NCBI GenBank assembly: GCA_963718235.1
Contig: CAVQYR010000002.1
Location: 842,244 to 906,243 of the forward strand
Length of the DNA: 64,000 bases
Direction of reading: 5' to 3'
Source of the DNA: an uncultured Actinomycetota bacterium
Lineage (GTDB): Bacteria > Actinomycetota > Actinomycetes > JAHEKZ01
Shown here piece by piece: positions 20,769-28,173 of the stretch. Within the stretch, counting starts at the first letter, position 1. Each line of letters starts with the position of its first letter. Below the pieces are notes generated by a model, which was given only the letters and a program-made list of their open reading frames with translations, did no database searches and had not been told where the DNA came from. The position numbers and the translations under genes were made by a program.

Positions 20769-21170
20769 CGCCAGGCCGGGCAGGGCAGGTACCTCGCCGC
20801 TCCAGCGGTAGGAGCGGACGGCGGAGTCGCGCAGCCAAGCGGCCGCCGTCCGTCGCCACAGCTCGTCGCCGGTCGCGACGAGCTGGGCGTAGGCGGTCGC
20901 GGACGCCGCCTCGATCTGGGCGGCCAGCGCGCGTGCCTGGGCGGCCGCGACGACGGGGGAGTCCGGCTCGTACGCCGGTGCGGCTGGGGTGGGCGTCGCT
21001 GACGCCTCGACCAGGGCTGCGGTCAGGAGGTCGCGACGCTGCCGGTGCACGTCGTAGGACTCGCGCGCCAGCTGGTCGTCCGGCCCGAGCCGACCTCCGA
21101 CGATGCCGTACCCGAACACCGCCGAGTGCTCGACGGCGAGCGCGCCCTGCAGCGACGCGAGGTCAGCCAC
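20760..21170 (-). CDS. DUF4439 ferritin-like domain protein
   Basis: From GTG 21170: LQGALAVEHSAVFGYG...HRQRRD...AAPAY...W....ALPGL. Conserved neighbour of rimP in actinobacteria. Confidence 0.8.
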   Translation of the reverse strand: MADLASLQGALAVEHSAVFGYGIVGGRLGPDDQLARESYDVHRQRRDLLTAALVEASATPTPAAPAYEPDSPVVAAAQARALAAQIEAASATAYAQLVATGDELWRRTAAAWLRDSAVRSYRWSGEVPALPGLASG

Positions 21171-21648
21171 GCGTGCCTCGCAACGACGCAGCCAGGGCCG
21201 CATCGCTCGCCGCGATCGAGGCGAGCAGGGCGGCGTCGGACCCGGACTCCGGTTCGGTGACCGCGCGCTGCGTCTGGTCGGCGGCCAGGTCCAGGGCCCG
21301 GACGAACGCCGCGGCGGTGCGGGGACCGGTCGGAGCACCGTCCAGCGCACCCAGCGCACCAGCCGCGCGCAGGGCGTCGACATGCGCGCCCAGCACCCGC
21401 TGCGCCTCGCTGAGGGTCAACGACTCGGCCCAGTCGAGCAGGGCCAGCTCGCGCAGCAGCACCGCGTCCAGCTCCGGCCGCCGGACCGCGCTCGTCGTCG
21501 AGTCCGGAGCGGTCGAGGACGCGTCGGGTCCTTCGGCCTCCGTGCACCCGACCAGCGCGACTGCACCGGCCAGCCACGGCACCGCGAGCACGGTCCGACG
21601 GGAGAGGGCGGGAACACCGCCGGTGTCGGGGCGGTCGGGCTCGGTCAC
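21163..21648 (-). CDS. putative Tat-exported lipoprotein
   Basis: SRRTVL twin-arginine motif, hydrophobic stretch, LVGC lipobox, C-terminal ALLASIAAS. Overlaps the DUF4439 gene. Confidence 0.6.
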   Translation of the reverse strand: MTEPDRPDTGGVPALSRRTVLAVPWLAGAVALVGCTEAEGPDASSTAPDSTTSAVRRPELDAVLLRELALLDWAESLTLSEAQRVLGAHVDALRAAGALGALDGAPTGPRTAAAFVRALDLAADQTQRAVTEPESGSDAALLASIAASDAALAASLRGTRG

Positions 21649-21734
21649 CGCGGCAGCATCGCACGAGCGGTCCCTCCCCGGACCGTTAGGCTGGCCGGAC
21701 AACCGATCACACAACTGGACCCCTCGGAGGCACC

Positions 21735-22208
21735 ATGAGCGCCGTCGCCGACCGCGTCGAACGCGTGCTCACTCCGGTGGTGTCCGCGGCCGGCTACGAC
21801 CTCGAGGCACTGGAGGTCCAGCCCGCCGGACGCCGACGTCTGCTGCGCGTGATCGTCGACCGTGACGGCGGGATCGACCTCGACGCCGTGGCCGGGCTCT
21901 CCCGCGACCTGTCGGCCGCCCTGGACGCCTCCGACGCGATGGGCGACCAGGCCTACGTGCTCGAGGTCACCTCTCCCGGCGTCGACCGCCCGCTGACCGA
22001 ACCGCGGCACTGGCGACGCAACAAGGACCGTCTGGTCACGGTCACCCTCAAGGACCACAGCACCGTGAAGGGGCGGATCGGCGACTCCGACGAGACGACC
22101 ACCACCCTGCTGACCGACGACGGCGTGCGCACCCTGACCTACGACGGCGTCCAGCGCGCCCACGTCGAGGTGGAGTTCCGCCGTCCCGACCCGACCGAAG
22201 GAGAGTGA
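21735..22208 (+). CDS. rimP: ribosome maturation factor RimP
   Basis: [14 protein letters not shown] motif; first gene of the nusA-infB operon. Confidence 0.96.
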
Positions 22209-22209
22209 C

Positions 22210-23208
22210 GTGGACATCGACATGGCCGCCTTGCGCGGACTCGTGAGCGAACGGGACATCTCCTTCGACCTGGTGGTCGGTGCGATCGAGAAGGCCCTGG
22301 AGACCGCGTACCACCACAGCCCCGGTGCCCAGCCGGTCGCCCGGGTGGAGCTCGACCGGTCCAGCGGCCACGTCACGGTCTGGGCGGCTGAGACCGACGA
22401 AGAGGGCACCGTGCTGCGCGAGTACGACGACACCCCGGAGGGGTTCGGACGGGTAGCGGCGACCACCGCCCGTCAGGTGATCCTGCAGCGCCTGCGTGAC
22501 GCCGAGGACGAAGCGGTCTACGGCACCTGGTCCGGGCGGGAGGGCGACATCGTGTCCGGGGTCGTGCAGCAGGGCCCCGACCGTGACGTCGTGCTGGTCG
22601 ACCTCGGCGGTGTCGAGGCGGTGCTGCCGGTCGGTGAGCAGGTGCCCGGGGAGATCTACGAGCACGGACTGCGGCTGCGCTGCTACGTCGTGGCCGTCCG
22701 CAAAGGGGCCCGCGGTCCGCAGATCACCGTGTCGCGCACCCACCCGAACCTGGTCAAGCGGCTGTTCGCCCGCGAGGTGCCCGAGATCGCCGACGGCAGC
22801 GTGGAGATCATGGGGATCGCCCGGGAGTCCGGGCACCGCAGCAAGCTGGCCGTGGCCTCCCACACGCCGGGGGTGAACGCCAAAGGGGCCTGCATCGGTC
22901 CGATGGGGCAGCGGGTGCGGGCGGTGATGGCCGAGCTGCACGGCGAGAAGATCGACATCGTCGACTGGTCGGAGGACCCGGCCGAGTACGTGGGCCACGC
23001 GCTCAGCCCGGCGCGGGTCAGCTCGGTGCGGGTGGTCGACCTGGACACCAAGCAGGTCAGGGCGGTCGTGCCGGACTACCAGCTGAGCCTGGCCATCGGC
23101 AAGGAGGGCCAGAACGCGCGGCTGGCGGCCCGGCTCACCGGCTGGCGGATCGACATCCGACCGGACACCGCACCGGAGCCGATCGCCGAGGCTGGCCGGC
23201 CGGAGTGA
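22210..23208 (+). CDS. nusA: transcription termination factor NusA
   Basis: [57 protein letters not shown]. Confidence 0.97.
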
Positions 23209-23228
23209 CCGACGGGGTAGACTGCCCG

Positions 23229-23609
23229 GTGTCCGGTCGTCCGGGCCCGGTCCGCACGTGCGTGGGGTGCCGGGAGCGGGCGGCCAAGGCTGATCTGCTG
23301 CGTGTGGTGGTCTCGTCGGACACCGACCCTCCTCGGGTCGTGCCCGACCCCACCAACCGGCGGCCCGGTCGGGGAGCCTCGTTGCATCCCCGGCGGGCCT
23401 GCCTCGACCTCGCTGTGCGTCGCCGGGCGTTCGCGCGGGCCCTCCGGCTCGTCGGGCCGGTCGACGTCGACGAGGTCAGGCAGTATCTGTCCCGACACCC
23501 AGCACCACCCACCAGCACGACCACCAGCACGACCACCAGCACGACCCCTACACCCGCAACCGAAGGCGGCGACGACAGCGATGAGCGCTCGATGAGCCAG
23601 CAGCGATGA
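23229..23609 (+). CDS. ylxR: YlxR/DUF448 family RNA-binding protein
   Basis: PVRTCVGCR and PGRGASLHP...C...A.RRRAF.RALR motifs. Thr/Ser low-complexity tail from a 12-bp repeat (ACCAGCACGACC x3). Start uncertain (23205 or 23229). Confidence 0.88.
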   Translation: MSGRPGPVRTCVGCRERAAKADLLRVVVSSDTDPPRVVPDPTNRRPGRGASLHPRRACLDLAVRRRAFARALRLVGPVDVDEVRQYLSRHPAPPTSTTTSTTTSTTPTPATEGGDDSDERSMSQQR

Positions 23610-23669
23610 GCATGCGCATCAACTAGGGGTCCGCACCCGACAGGGGTCCGGACCGAAGACAGGAGAGCA
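23579..23669 (+). promoter_or_regulatory. infB leader: three ATGA-overlapping mini-ORFs, then a hairpin, then the SD
   Basis: MSAR* 23581-23595, MSQQR* 23592-23609, MSMRIN* 23606-23626. Hairpin GGTCCG-C-ACCC/GGGT-C-CGGACC at 23628-23654. AGGAG at 23661-23665. Confidence 0.6.
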
Positions 23670-26369
23670 GTGGCAAAGGTCCGGGTCTACGAGCTCGCAA
23701 AGGAGCTCGGTGTCGAGAGCAAGGTCGTCTTGGCCAAGCTCAGTGAGATGGGTGAGTTCGTCCGGTCGGCGTCGTCGACCGTCGAGGCACCCGTCGTCCG
23801 AAGGCTGCGCGAGGCGATGCCAGCAGCGCCGGCAGCGCCGGCCGCCGAGAAGCCCGCCAAGAAGGCCGCCGCGAAACCGGCCGCCAAGAAGGCTGCGCCC
23901 GCTCCCGAGCCGCTGCCCGACGAGCTGGTGGCTGCCGCCACCGCCGCCGTGGCGGCCCAGGCGCAGCCCGCCCCGGCGGCGTCGGCACCCGCAGCAGTCG
24001 CAGCCGAGGCCGCCGCCCCGGCGCCGGCCCGTCCCGCGGGTCCGCGTCCGGGCAACAACCCGTTCACGTCCCGTGAGCCGGCCCCGCCACGTCCCGCGGG
24101 TCCGCGTCCGGGCAACAACCCGTACACCTCCCGCGAGCCGGCCCCGCCGCGCCCGGCGGGGATGCCCCCACGTCCGGGTGGCGGGGCTCCTAACCCCGGC
24201 ATGATGCCTCCGCGCCCGCAGCCGGGCGCCGGTCGTACCGGAGCCCCCGGCCGACCGGGAGCACCCGGTCGCCCCGGAACCGGCGGCGCCCGTCCGGGCA
24301 CCGGCGGAGCCCGACCCGGTGGCGGTGGTGGCTACGCCGGCCGTCCCGGTGGTGGCGGTGCGCCCAGCGGTGGTGGCGGCTACGCCGGTCGTCCCGGTGG
24401 TGGCGGTGGCCGACCCGGTGGTCCCGGTGGTCGCGGCGGCACCCAGGGTGCGTTCGGTCGCGGCGGCGGCAAGCCGCGTGGGCGCAAGTCGCGCAAGCAG
24501 CGGCGTCAGGAGTTCGACAACCTGCAGGCCCCGACCATCGGTGGGGTCTCGGTCCCGCGCGGACAGGGGCAAACCGTTCGGCTGCCCCGAGGCGCGTCGC
24601 TGACCGACTTCGCCGACAAGATCGGCGCCAACCCGGCGTCGCTGGTGCAGGTGCTGTTCACCCTCGGCGAGATGGCCACGGCCACGCAGTCCCTCGACGA
24701 GGACACGTTCGCGCTGCTGGGCTCCGAGCTCGGCTACGACGTCGAGGTGGTCAGTCCCGACGACGAGGACCGCGAGCTGCTGGAGTCCTTCGACATCGAC
24801 CTCGACGCCGAGGTGGCCGAGCAGGACGACGACGATCTCCTGCCGCGACCGCCGGTCGTCACGGTCATGGGCCACGTCGACCACGGCAAGACCAAGCTGC
24901 TCGACGCCATCCGCTCGACCGACGTCGTCGCCGACGAGGCCGGCGGGATCACCCAGCACATCGGCGCCTACCAGGTGCACGTGCCGCACGACGGACGCGA
25001 CCGCGCCCTGACCTTCATCGACACCCCCGGCCACGAGGCGTTCACCGCCATGCGTGCCCGCGGGGCGAAGGTCACTGACATCGCGGTGCTCGTGGTGGCT
25101 GCCGACGACGGCGTGATGCCGCAGACGATCGAGGCGCTGAACCACGCGCAGGCGGCCGAGGTGCCGATCGTGGTGGCGGTCAACAAGGTCGACAAGGAGG
25201 ACGCCAACCCGGCCAAGGTGCGCCAGCAGCTGACCGAGTACGGACTGGTGGCCGAGGAGTACGGCGGCGAGACGATGTTCGTCGACGTCTCCGCCAAGAG
25301 CCGGCTCAACATCGACAGCCTGCTCGAGGCCGTACTGCTCACCGCAGACGCGGCGCTCGACCTCCGGGCCAACCCCAACACCGAGGCCCGAGGTGTCGCC
25401 ATCGAGGCCCACCTCGACCGCGGCCGCGGTCCGGTGGCCACGGTGCTGGTCCAGCGGGGCACGCTGCACGTCGGTGAGGCCATCGTGGCCGGCGACGCGT
25501 TCGGCCGGGTCCGGGCCATGCTCGACGAGCACGGTGACCCGGTCGAGCAGGCCGGCCCGTCGCGACCGGTGCAGGTGCTGGGCTTCAGCTCGGTGCCCGG
25601 CGCCGGTGACCGGTTCATCGTTGCCGAGGAGGAGCGCGTCGCTCGCCAGATCGCCGAGAAGCGACAGGCGATGGAGCGCAACGCCGCCCTGGCCAAGGCC
25701 CGCAAGAAGGTCAGCCTGGAGGACCTCCAGAAGATCCTCGAGCAGGGCAAGATCGAGACGCTGAACCTGATCCTCAAGGGCGACGTGTCGGGTTCGGTCG
25801 AGGCCCTCGAGGACGCCTTGCTGAAGATCGACGTCGGCGAGGAGGTGTCGATGCGGATCATCCACCGCGGGGTCGGCGCCATCACCCAGCACGACGTCAC
25901 CTTGGCGTCGGCGTCCGACGCGGTCATCATCGGCTTCAACGTCCGACCGGAGGGTCGGGCTCGTGAGCTCGCCGAGCGCGAGGGCATCGACATCCGGTAC
26001 TACTCGGTCATCTACCAGGCGATCGACGAGATCGAGCAGGCCCTCAAGGGAATGCTCAAGCCGGAGTTCGAGGAGGTCGAGCTGGGTACCGCCGAGGTCC
26101 GCGAGGTCTTCCGGTCCAGCAAGTTCGGCACCATCGCCGGCTCGCTGGTCCGCTCCGGGGAGCTCAAGCGCGGCACCAAGGCGCGCGTGGTCCGAGATGG
26201 CGCGGTCGTGGCCGAGAACGTCGAGATCACCGGGCTGCGACGGTTCAAGGACGACGTCACCGAGGTTCGCGAGGGTTTCGAGTGCGGCATCAACCTGGGG
26301 TCGTTCAACGACGTCAAGGTCGACGACGTCATCGAGACGTTCGAGATGCGCGAGAAGCCTCGCGCCTGA
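23670..26369 (+). CDS. infB: translation initiation factor IF-2
   Basis: [47 protein letters not shown]. Confidence 0.98.
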
Positions 26370-26411
26370 TCGAGGTCGCGAGCAGGTCCGGTTTCGACCC
26401 AGGGATGGCGG

Positions 26412-26708
26412 ATGGTCATCGGCACGCTGAGACTGGACCTGCTGCTCGGCGACGTCTCGTCGCTGAAGCAGAAGCGGTCGGTCGTGCGACCAGTGGTCGC
26501 CGAGCTGCGACGGGTGTTCGCCGTCGCCGTCGCGGAGACGGGCGACCAAGAGCTGTACCGAAGGGCCGAGATCGGCGTGGCGTGCGTCTCGGCCGACTTC
26601 GCGCACTGCCGTGACGTTCTCGACGCGTGTGAGCGCGCCGTGGCCGAACGGCCTGAGCTGGAGCTGCTGTCGGCGCGACAGCGGCTCTTCGACGAGGAGG
26701 ACCTGTGA
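26412..26708 (+). CDS. DUF503 (YlxP) family protein
   Basis: SLKQKRSVVRP...AVAETGDQEL.RRAEIG. Canonical position between infB and rbfA. Confidence 0.9.
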   Translation: MVIGTLRLDLLLGDVSSLKQKRSVVRPVVAELRRVFAVAVAETGDQELYRRAEIGVACVSADFAHCRDVLDACERAVAERPELELLSARQRLFDEEDL

Positions 26709-27145
26709 CCGAGATGGACGCCCGCGCTCGCAAGCTGGCCGACCGCATCCGCGAGATCGTGGCCGAGACGCTCGAGCGCAGGGTCAAGGACCCTCGGCTG
26801 GGGTTCGTGACGATCACCGACGCGCGGATCACCAACGACCTTCGCGACGCCACGGTCTTCTACACCGTCTACGGCGACGAGACCGAGCGCGTGGACACCG
26901 GGGTCGCTCTGGACAGCGCCAAGGGCATGCTGCGCAGTGAGGTCGGCAAGCAGACGGGAGTCCGGTTCACCCCGACGCTGGCCTTCATGCTGGACGGTGT
27001 GCAGGAGAACGCTCGGCACATCGAGGACCTGCTGCAGCAGGCCCGCGAGGCCGACGCCCAGGTGCACCGGCAGGCGGCAGCGGCCCAGTACGCGGCCGGC
27101 GCCGACGCCTATCGCACCGACGAGCCCGAGGCCGACGCCCAGTGA
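26705..27145 (+). CDS. rbfA: ribosome-binding factor A
   Basis: KDPRLGFVTITD, DLRDATVFYT, VRFTPTLAF. Confidence 0.96.
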   Translation: MTEMDARARKLADRIREIVAETLERRVKDPRLGFVTITDARITNDLRDATVFYTVYGDETERVDTGVALDSAKGMLRSEVGKQTGVRFTPTLAFMLDGVQENARHIEDLLQQAREADAQVHRQAAAAQYAAGADAYRTDEPEADAQ

Positions 27146-28173
27146 CCGACACTCTCCCTTGCCCCGGGGTCGACGACTCCACCTGGGACACCATCGTCGC
27201 GGTGATCCTCGGCGCCCCGCGCGTCCTCCTGCTCGGGCACGTGTCACCCGACGGTGATGCGCTGGGGTCTGCGCTGGCCGTCGGACTCGCGCTGAGGCAG
27301 CTGCCCGGCGCCCGCCAGGTGCAGGTGTCGTTCGGCGACGAGCCGTTCGTCGTCCCGGCCAACCTCGCCGGGCTGCCGGGGCTGTCGCTGCTGGTCGAGC
27401 CCTCGCAGGTGGCCGCCCCCGACGTCACCGTCACCTTCGACGCCAGCAGCGCCGACCGGCTCGGCGTGCTCAGGCCGCTCGCCGAGGCCGGCCAGCACCT
27501 CGTCGTGGTCGACCACCACGCCTCCTACGACGGGTTCGGCACCCTGGCCGCCGTCGACGTGCGCGCACCGGCCACCGCGGTGCTGGCCGACGAGCTGATC
27601 CGTCGGCTGGGCGCCACCGTCGACCACGACGTGGCGGCGAACCTCTACACCGGCCTGGTCACCGACACCGGGTCGTTCCGCTACGCCGGCACGACGCCAG
27701 ACACCCACGCACTGGCGGGCCGGCTCCTGGAGACGGGGATCCGGTTCGACGTCATTGCCCGTGAGCTGTTCGACAACGTGCCGTTCGGCTACCTCGGCCT
27801 GCTGGGACGCGCACTCGACCGCGCCGTGCTGGAGCGTGACGCCGCGGGCGGGCTCGGCCTGGTCTGGACGGTCGTCCCGGCGCTGGAGCGCCAGCAGCTC
27901 GGGCTCCCGTTCGACCTCGTCGAACCGATCATCGACAGCGTGCGCAAGGCCGAGGAGGCGGAGGTCGCCTGTGTGGTCAAGGAGGACGACTTCGGCCAGC
28001 TGCGGGTCTCGATGCGCAGCAAGGGTCGGCTCGACGTGAGCCTGGCAGCGATCGCCCTGGGCGGCGGCGGCCACCGCTACGCAGCCGGGTTCACCGCGGA
28101 CACCCACGACCTGGATGCGGTGATCCGCGGCGTCCGCGAGCAGCTGGACGAAGCCCCGCACCTGCAGCCGTGA
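27142..28173 (+). CDS. nrnA: DHH-family phosphoesterase (NrnA-like)
   Basis: HVSPDGDALGS, VVDHH, TDTGSF, GGGGHRYAAG. Confidence 0.9.
   Translation: MTDTLPCPGVDDSTWDTIVAVILGAPRVLLLGHVSPDGDALGSALAVGLALRQLPGARQVQVSFGDEPFVVPANLAGLPGLSLLVEPSQVAAPDVTVTFDASSADRLGVLRPLAEAGQHLVVVDHHASYDGFGTLAAVDVRAPATAVLADELIRRLGATVDHDVAANLYTGLVTDTGSFRYAGTTPDTHALAGRLLETGIRFDVIARELFDNVPFGYLGLLGRALDRAVLERDAAGGLGLVWTVVPALERQQLGLPFDLVEPIIDSVRKAEEAEVACVVKEDDFGQLRVSMRSKGRLDVSLAAIALGGGGHRYAAGFTADTHDLDAVIRGVREQLDEAPHLQP

Follow-up and report, generated by a model that had tools for sequence, protein, structure and literature searches.

A conserved chain of overlapping mini-ORFs and a candidate RNA switch between ylxR and infB in Actinomycetes

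The gene for translation initiation factor IF2, infB, lies downstream of rimP, nusA and ylxR in a 64,000-nt stretch of DNA from an uncultured Actinomycetota bacterium (GTDB lineage Bacteria; Actinomycetota; Actinomycetes; JAHEKZ01; GenBank assembly GCA_963718235.1, contig CAVQYR010000002.1, positions 842,244-906,243 of the forward strand); we refer to this whole stretch as the window and use its coordinates throughout. Immediately upstream of infB, three very short open reading frames (mini-ORFs) are joined head to tail by stop/start overlaps and followed by a hairpin. This chain is real and not a product of chance, and the 3' arm of the hairpin has a second complementary partner in codons 3-6 of infB, which is new here. 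The hairpin is probably a switch with a conserved partner inside infB, and we lean, with modest confidence, towards a reading in which a translated relay and an RNA switch together control infB translation. The locus contains the following features, all on the plus strand:

21735-22208, plus strand: rimP
22210-23208, plus strand: nusA
23205-23609, plus strand: ylxR (YlxR/DUF448; PF04296, E-value 4.9e-22, residues 17-96 of 134)
23563-23570, plus strand: purine-rich site resembling a Shine-Dalgarno (SD) sequence, GAAGGCGG, 10 nt 5' of the mini-ORF1 ATG
23581-23595, plus strand: mini-ORF1, MSAR then stop (ATG AGC GCT CGA TGA), by direct reading
23592-23609, plus strand: mini-ORF2, MSQQR then stop, its ATG overlapping the TGA of mini-ORF1
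23606-23626, plus strand: mini-ORF3, MSMRIN then stop, its ATG overlapping the TGA shared by mini-ORF2 and ylxR
23628-23638, plus strand: segment A, the 5' arm of the hairpin (GGUCCG c ACCC), from folding
23644-23654, plus strand: segment B, the 3' arm of the hairpin (GGGU c CGGACC), which pairs with A or with C
23661-23665, plus strand: infB SD sequence AGGAG, a conserved column block in the alignment described below and part of the loop of the B:C helix
23670-26369, plus strand: infB (IF2, 899 amino acids, GTG start at 23670), with IF2_N, GTP_EFTU and IF-2 domains
23678-23688, plus strand: segment C, infB codons 3-6 (G GUC CGG GUC U), complementary to B
26412-26708, plus strand: DUF503 gene
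26705-27145, plus strand: rbfA

Direct reading places copies of CGATGAGC at 23579, 23590 and 23604, and the two stop/start overlaps read ATGA at 23592-23595 and 23606-23609; the three mini-ORFs, of 4-6 codons each, occupy all three reading frames. Mini-ORF2 is in frame with ylxR and makes up its last five codons, and mini-ORF1 lies inside ylxR in a different frame; beyond the PF04296 match, ylxR residues 97-134 form a low-complexity tail, which spans mini-ORF1 and has mini-ORF2 as its end. The TAG stop of mini-ORF3 falls 1 nt 5' of the hairpin (23628-23654), which in turn ends 6 nt 5' of AGGAG, and the site GAAGGCGG upstream of mini-ORF1 is the counterpart of a conserved GGAAGCAGGT-type motif in relatives. 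The original prediction, made on this DNA without database searches, had described the chain, the hairpin, the SD sequence and the GTG start, and every element was borne out by reading 23560-23690. It had also noted that the first two mini-ORFs end in CGA, which is correct, and had called this codon rare, which is too strong; CGA is uncommon, at 9.3% of Arg codons in the long ORFs of this genome.

Upstream of the chain, the ylxR tail owes its TTST repeats to a 12-nt tandem repeat (23499-23546; consensus CCAGCACGACCA, 3.9 copies), and an RNA-library contig from a near-identical organism is without exactly 12 nt at 23509, pointing to in-frame copy-number variation. Logan metatranscriptome contigs (X1) cover 23245-23597 and 23568-23659, together 23245-23659; contigs of this kind are a weak sign of presence, as they are blind to ends, strand and translation and may derive from DNA carry-over.

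To follow the chain in relatives we anchored on the N-terminus of IF2 and not on the feature itself. From the window's class 201 genomes were drawn, 194 of them with an IF2 match, and the examined set comprised 110 genomes in 45 families, with 60 regions picked to cover unsampled families. At least three linked mini-ORFs precede infB within 260 nt in 101 of these 110 genomes (97 of 110 within 130 nt), covering 41 of the 45 families; the longest linked chain within 260 nt held three ORFs in 80 genomes, four in 19, five in two, two in eight and one in a single genome. These counts include two unpublished genomes (G025, G033), without which the figure is 99/108. All 15 further loci from families f29, f47 and f43 also had the chain; in all it is kept in 43 of 47 sampled families with diverged sequences.

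A separate scan of named Actinomycetes loci found the chain in 78 of 79, one further locus being too short to score. Those with the chain include Streptomyces, Kitasatospora, Nonomuraea, Actinomadura, Streptosporangium, Kineococcus and Actinotalea, as well as metagenome-assembled genomes (MAGs) of Nanopelagicales, Sporichthyaceae and others; in Streptomyces the chain is typically MSTR, MSTR and MSTPMK, each followed by a stop, and the triple mini-ORFs that the original prediction had mentioned for this genus are present on named records. No three-ORF chain was found in 22 loci from seven families of other classes of the phylum, where the maximum was two, seen once; this set includes five unpublished genomes (G213, G229, G257, G289, G324), without which the count is 0/17. 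Conservation of an (A/G)TGA chain and hairpin upstream of infB, on which the original prediction had been staked, is clear.

The clustering of the overlaps exceeds what composition would give. CGATGAGC occurs 11 times in the 64-kb window on both strands (expected 5.4, standard deviation 2.3; 1 of 100 shuffles reached 11), and three of the 11 copies fall within 33 nt. Chains of at least three linked ORFs arose in 15 of 2,200 shuffles of infB-upstream regions and in 6 of 1,966 window tiles. The 3.17-Mb genome to which the window belongs has only three chains of at least three linked ORFs of up to nine codons, where three shuffled megabases gave one, and the infB-leader chain is the only non-repeat chain of its kind adjoining a translation gene. 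One of the others (G000:C1:874092-874235) consists of ten head-to-tail copies of a 14-nt unit, each reading MTERR and linked to its neighbour through ATGA; downstream of the array come AGGAGG and the ATG of a 269-residue ORF (start C1 874247), and the array resembles repeats of the mycobacterial interspersed repetitive unit (MIRU) type with coupled ORFs. The remaining chain (G000:C1:1823054-1823096, minus strand) encodes MRLTDR, MTHR and MTRR and precedes an ORF whose product looks like a membrane protein.

Several features of the chain are those expected of translated ORFs. The spacing from one ATGA to the next is 2 modulo 3 in 187 of 208 cases (11 nt in 83, 14 nt in 93 and 17 nt in 7), and in 84 of 93 when one genome per family is taken; with this spacing each TGA stays in the frame of the preceding ATG. 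Among 362 junctions of the last three ORFs, drawn from 195 distinct upstream sequences, 334 are ATGA, 15 TGATG, 10 GTGA, two TAATG and one TTGA. A low-GC family with 1.4-Mb genomes has four chained ORFs written in other letters (MRKI, MKLK, MSSFTS and MRSNN, each with its stop), and family f47 builds its chain with GTGA and TAATG; the persistence of the overlaps in low-GC lineages, in a different spelling, points to translation and not a nucleotide motif as the target of selection. An SD-like 4-mer lies at positions -18 to -5 of mini-ORF1 in 74 of 96 genomes.

Lengths are tightly held, with four sense codons in mini-ORF1 (69/97 genomes), five in mini-ORF2 (84/97) and five to seven in mini-ORF3 (90/97); the encoded peptides are variable except for Met-Ser and the terminal Arg. 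CGA is the terminal codon of mini-ORF1 in 79 and of mini-ORF2 in 67 of 97 genomes (81% and 69%), compared with 17% of NNA codons in the long ORFs of the window's own genome, NNA before ATGA and ANN after it being the constraint set by the overlap itself; the second codon is mostly AGC or AGU. As speculation, a weak I:A wobble at CGA could leave the A available to the next AUG. ylxR shares a stop with the chain in 51 of 158 loci, the window included, and in 78 of the 158 its stop falls 5' of the last three ORFs. Mini-ORF3 often has a second in-frame ATG two or four codons before its stop, as in MSMRIN and MSTPMK (37 of 97 genomes, 16 of 41 families; Met makes up 7.7% of non-initial mini-ORF3 residues), through which ribosomes may also enter close to the hairpin.

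Taken alone, the hairpin of the window is stable, with a predicted energy of -19.5 kcal/mol (z -3.2; 1 of 200 shuffles as good), and 107 of 110 genomes have a hairpin of -8 kcal/mol or lower downstream of the last stop (median -17.3 kcal/mol). The distance from that stop to the hairpin is 0-6 nt in 95 of these 107, and in most genomes 11-17 nt separate the hairpin from the infB start. When 107 distinct sequences were aligned with plain MAFFT (alignment A1), 90.4% of cells in the six outer A:B pairs were paired and 24 cells were doubly changed, and none of 500 shuffles scored as high. In the window the hairpin is followed by GAAGACAGGAG, without a U tract, and so is not of the intrinsic terminator or attenuator type. 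A search of 4,227 Rfam families over 21000-27500 on both strands gave no match at E ≤ 1, and a consensus scan of 23000-23800 found no promoter- or terminator-like site, a result of little weight for Actinomycetes promoters. In MAGs of Streptosporangiaceae type (L152, L171, L175, L187, L190, L206, L220, L221, L223), the last stop and infB are separated by a spacer of 70-86 nt holding two or three copies of the GGUCCGG/CCGGACC arms, and the hairpin module appears duplicated. Two other structural readings were dropped: a hairpin, drawn by eye, of an upstream GGUCGAG motif with the junction of mini-ORF1 and mini-ORF2 (CUCGA), which is absent in family f1; and hammerhead-like or kink-turn-like readings of GAUGAG, which had no Rfam match.

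The 3' arm of this hairpin also matches the start of infB. Segment B (ending in CCCGGACC) and infB codons 3-6 (segment C, G GUC CGG G; 23678-23685) are complementary, and folding the window without A gives an 11-bp helix of 23644-23654 with 23678-23688 that has the SD sequence and the GUG start codon in its loop. RNAduplex without a fixed register proved too permissive, allowing long interior loops, and was replaced by an ungapped, register-fixed count; by this count B:C reaches at least 8 bp in 87 and at least 6 bp in 99 of 108 genomes. In 80 of those 99 the 3' end of B coincides with that of the hairpin (offset 0 or -1). Eight B:C pairs on alignment A1 are 95.2% paired, a value equalled in none of 500 shuffles, and a slide by one column lowers it to 49-56%. 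RNAalifold run unguided on the same alignment returned B:C as the consensus structure.

The pairs change together. Column pair 80-127 of the alignment is CG in 65 sequences, GC in 14, UG in 8, AU in 2, UA in 2 and other in 16, and column pair 84-123 is AU in 65, GU in 30, GC in 7 and other in 4. Where infB has CGC, B has G in five of six families, and where it has CGG, B has C or U in 26 of 31 (Fisher p 0.003, overstated since families are taken as independent); in all five families with Ala GCC in place of Val GUC, B carries G, and the C-A mismatch is never seen. There are two mutually exclusive helices, one of them over the infB initiation region, each with compensatory pairs. The original prediction had proposed that ribosome occupancy beside the hairpin tunes infB; the conserved, covarying alternative partner in infB codons 3-6 gives this proposal concrete support, and suggests its direction, namely that mini-ORF translation closes the infB start.

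Both partners compete for B in predicted folds. Of 99 genomes folded from the last stop to position +36, 38 place B opposite A and 48 place it opposite C; hiding the 13 nt that follow the stop, as a terminating ribosome would, gives B:C in 78 of the 99 in silico. That A and C are both frequent partners indicates two states close in energy, as expected of a switch. Synonymous sites at infB codons 4 and 5 (23678-23685, columns 121-128 of the alignment) are far more uniform than codon usage in this genome would lead one to expect, which fits constraint at the RNA level; about 90% of the aligned sequences have GUC, whose usage is 56%, and about three quarters have CGG, whose usage is 36%, in kin that are not independent. 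In the full window fold with A:B formed, the SD stretch GACAGGA pairs weakly with UCC..GUCU of infB codons 4-7 (23657-23688), with no clear covariation by eye.

In the mechanism that we propose, the SD-like site would load ribosomes onto mini-ORF1, and in about a third of genomes, the window's included, ribosomes finishing ylxR would enter the chain directly. As the UGA of mini-ORF1 and of mini-ORF2 shares letters with the next AUG, reaching mini-ORF3 would take two terminations and reinitiations; the three stops close all three frames, so that ribosomes of any frame would be funnelled to a single stop at the foot of the hairpin. Having stops in all frames means that the device would work for any arriving frame, which suits a ylxR tail that varies by repeats. 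A:B and B:C exclude each other, and B:C would lock the SD sequence and GUG in a loop closed by a G+C-rich helix of 8-11 bp over positions +9 to +19. A ribosome at the end of mini-ORF3 would cover A, B would move to C and infB initiation would be shut; with no ribosome there, A would hold B and the infB start would be open. Output of infB would then fall as relay traffic rises.

Several points weigh against this mechanism, in which translation of the mini-ORFs is inferred from sequence. The shuffle controls and the Fisher test overstate the support, because related genomes are not independent. The whole 131-nt region (23560-23690) is of ordinary stability (z -0.5), for which reason we do not treat its mini-ORF part as structured RNA, and the energy of B:C in the window is unexceptional for a single sequence (z -0.26). 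The unmasked fold gives B:C in 48 of 99 genomes, meaning that the infB start is not open by default everywhere. Families f39, f47 and f51, some members of f29 and f43, and the genomes G110 and G038 show no B:C helix or only a doubtful one, and position 7 of the helix is mismatched in nine family states. One genome, G195 (L094, family f52), has no 5' arm A and a two-ORF chain whose last stop lies 5 nt before B, an arrangement in which upstream translation would open and not close the infB start; it keeps B:C with a compensatory CGA/UCG pair. Furthermore, infB initiation itself needs IF2, and the net feedback would depend on the relative sensitivities of the two. Work by Karimi et al. from 1998 (cited in PMC10192219) is said to have found that IF1 and IF2 strip short peptidyl-tRNAs from ribosomes, and such removal could invert the sign of an IF2 effect.

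Other exceptions concern the chain or the hairpin. Chains shorter than three ORFs occur in G024 and G062 (both listed under family f6), part of family f12, G031, G137, G195 and L186, the chain of G184 lies 116 nt upstream, and the hairpin is absent in G038, G043 and G195. In some members of f43, B pairs, by eye, with a shifted part of the infB start. Family f39 (L077-L079, L124-L126; genomes of 5-7.5 Mb) has the chain MSTP, VKSR and MTMRHS, each with its stop, the second ORF starting with GTG in a GTGA overlap; its hairpin arms, GAGGCG/CGCCUC, are not complementary to the infB start, and IF2 begins AGKARVHEL in some members.

What the relay would sense is a separate question from whether it acts on infB. 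Each relay step needs formylmethionyl-tRNA (fMet-tRNA) delivered by IF2, and traffic may report IF2 activity steeply, which would amount to negative autoregulation; in E. coli, overexpression of IF2 raises reinitiation and IF3 lowers it (Yoo and RajBhandary 2008, in the review PMC12548453), and according to the same review it is still an open question whether bacterial reinitiation proceeds by 30S or by 70S scanning (PMC12548453). That IF2 is the quantity sensed is a tentative proposal, which we would sooner doubt than assume. A plain ribosome-flux or coupling function would fit the sequence data equally well, and the read-out may be IF2 activity, general ribosome flux, RF2 or recycling capacity, or Arg-tRNA(ICG).

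An unlikely rival would do without factor sensing altogether, the chain being a plain hand-over device whose overlaps catch ribosomes from the hypervariable ylxR tail in any frame and bring them to one fixed point; there the ribosomes would melt the hairpin and reinitiate at the infB start or open it, with positive translational coupling of infB to nusA-ylxR. It would account for the 51 of 158 loci, the window among them, in which ylxR and the chain share a stop, for a ylxR tail varying by repeats and indels (the 12-nt repeat, one unit of which is missing in the RNA-library contig), for three stops that cover all three frames, and for G195, in which a ribosome terminating just before B would open B:C. 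In 78 of 158 loci, however, ylxR stops 5' of the last three ORFs, and there mini-ORF1 comes with an SD-like site of its own. A stable hairpin separates the last stop from the infB start 35-50 nt downstream, and infB has a strong SD sequence of its own. Stops alone would be enough to halt ribosomes, yet an ATG overlaps the stop at 334 of 362 junctions; and in most genomes it is A and not B that a ribosome at the mini-ORF3 stop would cover, an arrangement that favours closing over opening.

Action at the level of the transcript is more improbable still. On this view transcription would pause or terminate at the hairpin, or an RNase would process the transcript there, and translating the mini-ORFs would block Rho or modulate how the hairpin forms as it is transcribed. 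The hairpin does stand directly after a putatively translated stretch, as in leader-peptide attenuators, and extra inputs to infB are reported, with a WhiB7 chromatin immunoprecipitation (ChIP) peak upstream of infB in M. abscessus (PMC10727445) and infB in the SigR regulon of Streptomyces (PMC5472188). No U tract follows the hairpin, however, 23000-23800 holds no terminator-like site, and this explanation leaves the complementarity and covariation of B with infB codons 3-6 unaccounted for.

It is very improbable that the three (C)GAUGAGC copies are untranslated repeats, serving as protein-binding sites or structured RNA with the ORFs incidental. The 8-mer is conserved beyond what the overlap needs, as the excess of CGA in the last codons of mini-ORF1 and mini-ORF2 (81% and 69% against 17% of NNA) and the AGC/AGU second codon indicate; but the spacing varies only in steps of three, lineages with AAAUGAAAC, GUGA, UAAUG or UGAUG keep the juxtaposition of stop and start, there is no Rfam match at E ≤ 1 in 21000-27500, and no exceptional fold lies 5' of the hairpin. 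A neutral origin of the chain, through slippage in the ylxR tail or by chance in G+C-rich DNA, can practically be dismissed: tandem repeats do adjoin it, and elsewhere a 14-nt repeat makes ten chained mini-ORFs, but the pattern recurs in 43 of 47 sampled families with diverged sequence and in only 15 of 2,200 shuffles.

The proposed relay and helix switch before infB shares parts of its logic with several known systems. In leaders of the ermC/cat type, ribosome occupancy of a short ORF decides between exclusive helices, one of which occludes the downstream initiation region. Leader-ORF occupancy is likewise proposed here to choose between exclusive helices, one over a gene start; the infB leader differs in having three chained ORFs with variable peptides that give no sign of stalling, in a predicted outcome of closing and not opening, and in that the regulated gene is a core translation factor and not a resistance gene. 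The AUU start codon of infC and the +1 frameshift at UGA in prfB let translation factors autoregulate through their own step. The proposed likeness is of an element in the factor's own mRNA read out by the factor's reaction, with mini-ORF1 and mini-ORF2 ending in UGA and restarting at AUG; IF2 autoregulation of the infC/prfB kind was not found in the literature searched.

The closest conceptual analogue of a sensor of initiator-tRNA delivery is yeast GCN4, in which the outcome at several very short upstream ORFs is set by regaining initiator tRNA after termination. GCN4 relies on eukaryotic scanning and spaced upstream ORFs, whereas the infB leader is bacterial, has overlapping ORFs and would be read out by a helix swap. 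A bacterial counterpart can be imagined in which a three-step reinitiation ladder measures reloading with fMet-tRNA (by IF2-GTP, and possibly the IF2:IF3 balance or IF2 bound to guanosine tetraphosphate, ppGpp) with a steep, multiplicative response, and in which occupancy of the last stop flips A:B to B:C, yielding ultrasensitive, homeostatic autoregulation of IF2 across Actinomycetes; we put this forward as a possibility and do not count it as the expected outcome.

Coupling at such overlaps has precedent in bacteria. Termination-reinitiation at NUGA overlaps was described by Huber et al. 2019 (cited in PMC11260477), an AUGA overlap drives it in a mycobacterial reporter, uPPE2-PPE2 (PMC11260477), and coupled small ORFs with opal stop/start overlaps are over-represented in mycobacteria (PMC4633059). 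The 4-nt AUGA stop/start overlap is common to these cases and to ours. In the known NUGA cases one ORF is directly coupled to a gene, whereas the infB leader has two successive overlaps joining three ORFs of 4-7 codons, the last of which does not overlap the gene and ends at a hairpin 35-50 nt upstream. The rimP-leader belongs to the same rimP-nusA-infB operon and is likewise a conserved regulatory hairpin; it is a terminator (GGGc...gCCC with a U stretch) upstream of rimP (PMC2965389), unlike the infB element, which lies between ylxR and infB, has no U stretch and matches no Rfam family. We found no description of mini-ORFs or a switch before infB in the papers searched; the main text of PMC9094748 does not mention 'infB', 'Rv2839c' or 'IF2', and the main texts of PMC4633059 and PMC11260477 are without 'infB'. 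At their size the mini-ORFs escape gene callers and are probably unannotated.

IF2 is essential, and the papers searched describe no translational feedback on it, whereas such feedback is textbook knowledge for IF3 (infC) and RF2 (prfB). If the proposed relay and switch are borne out, three positions of infB within codons 3-6 would be constrained at the RNA level, and the leader would offer a natural assay for the efficiency of bacterial reinitiation. A class-wide leader that joins two reinitiation steps to a helix swap would then represent a new regulatory design.

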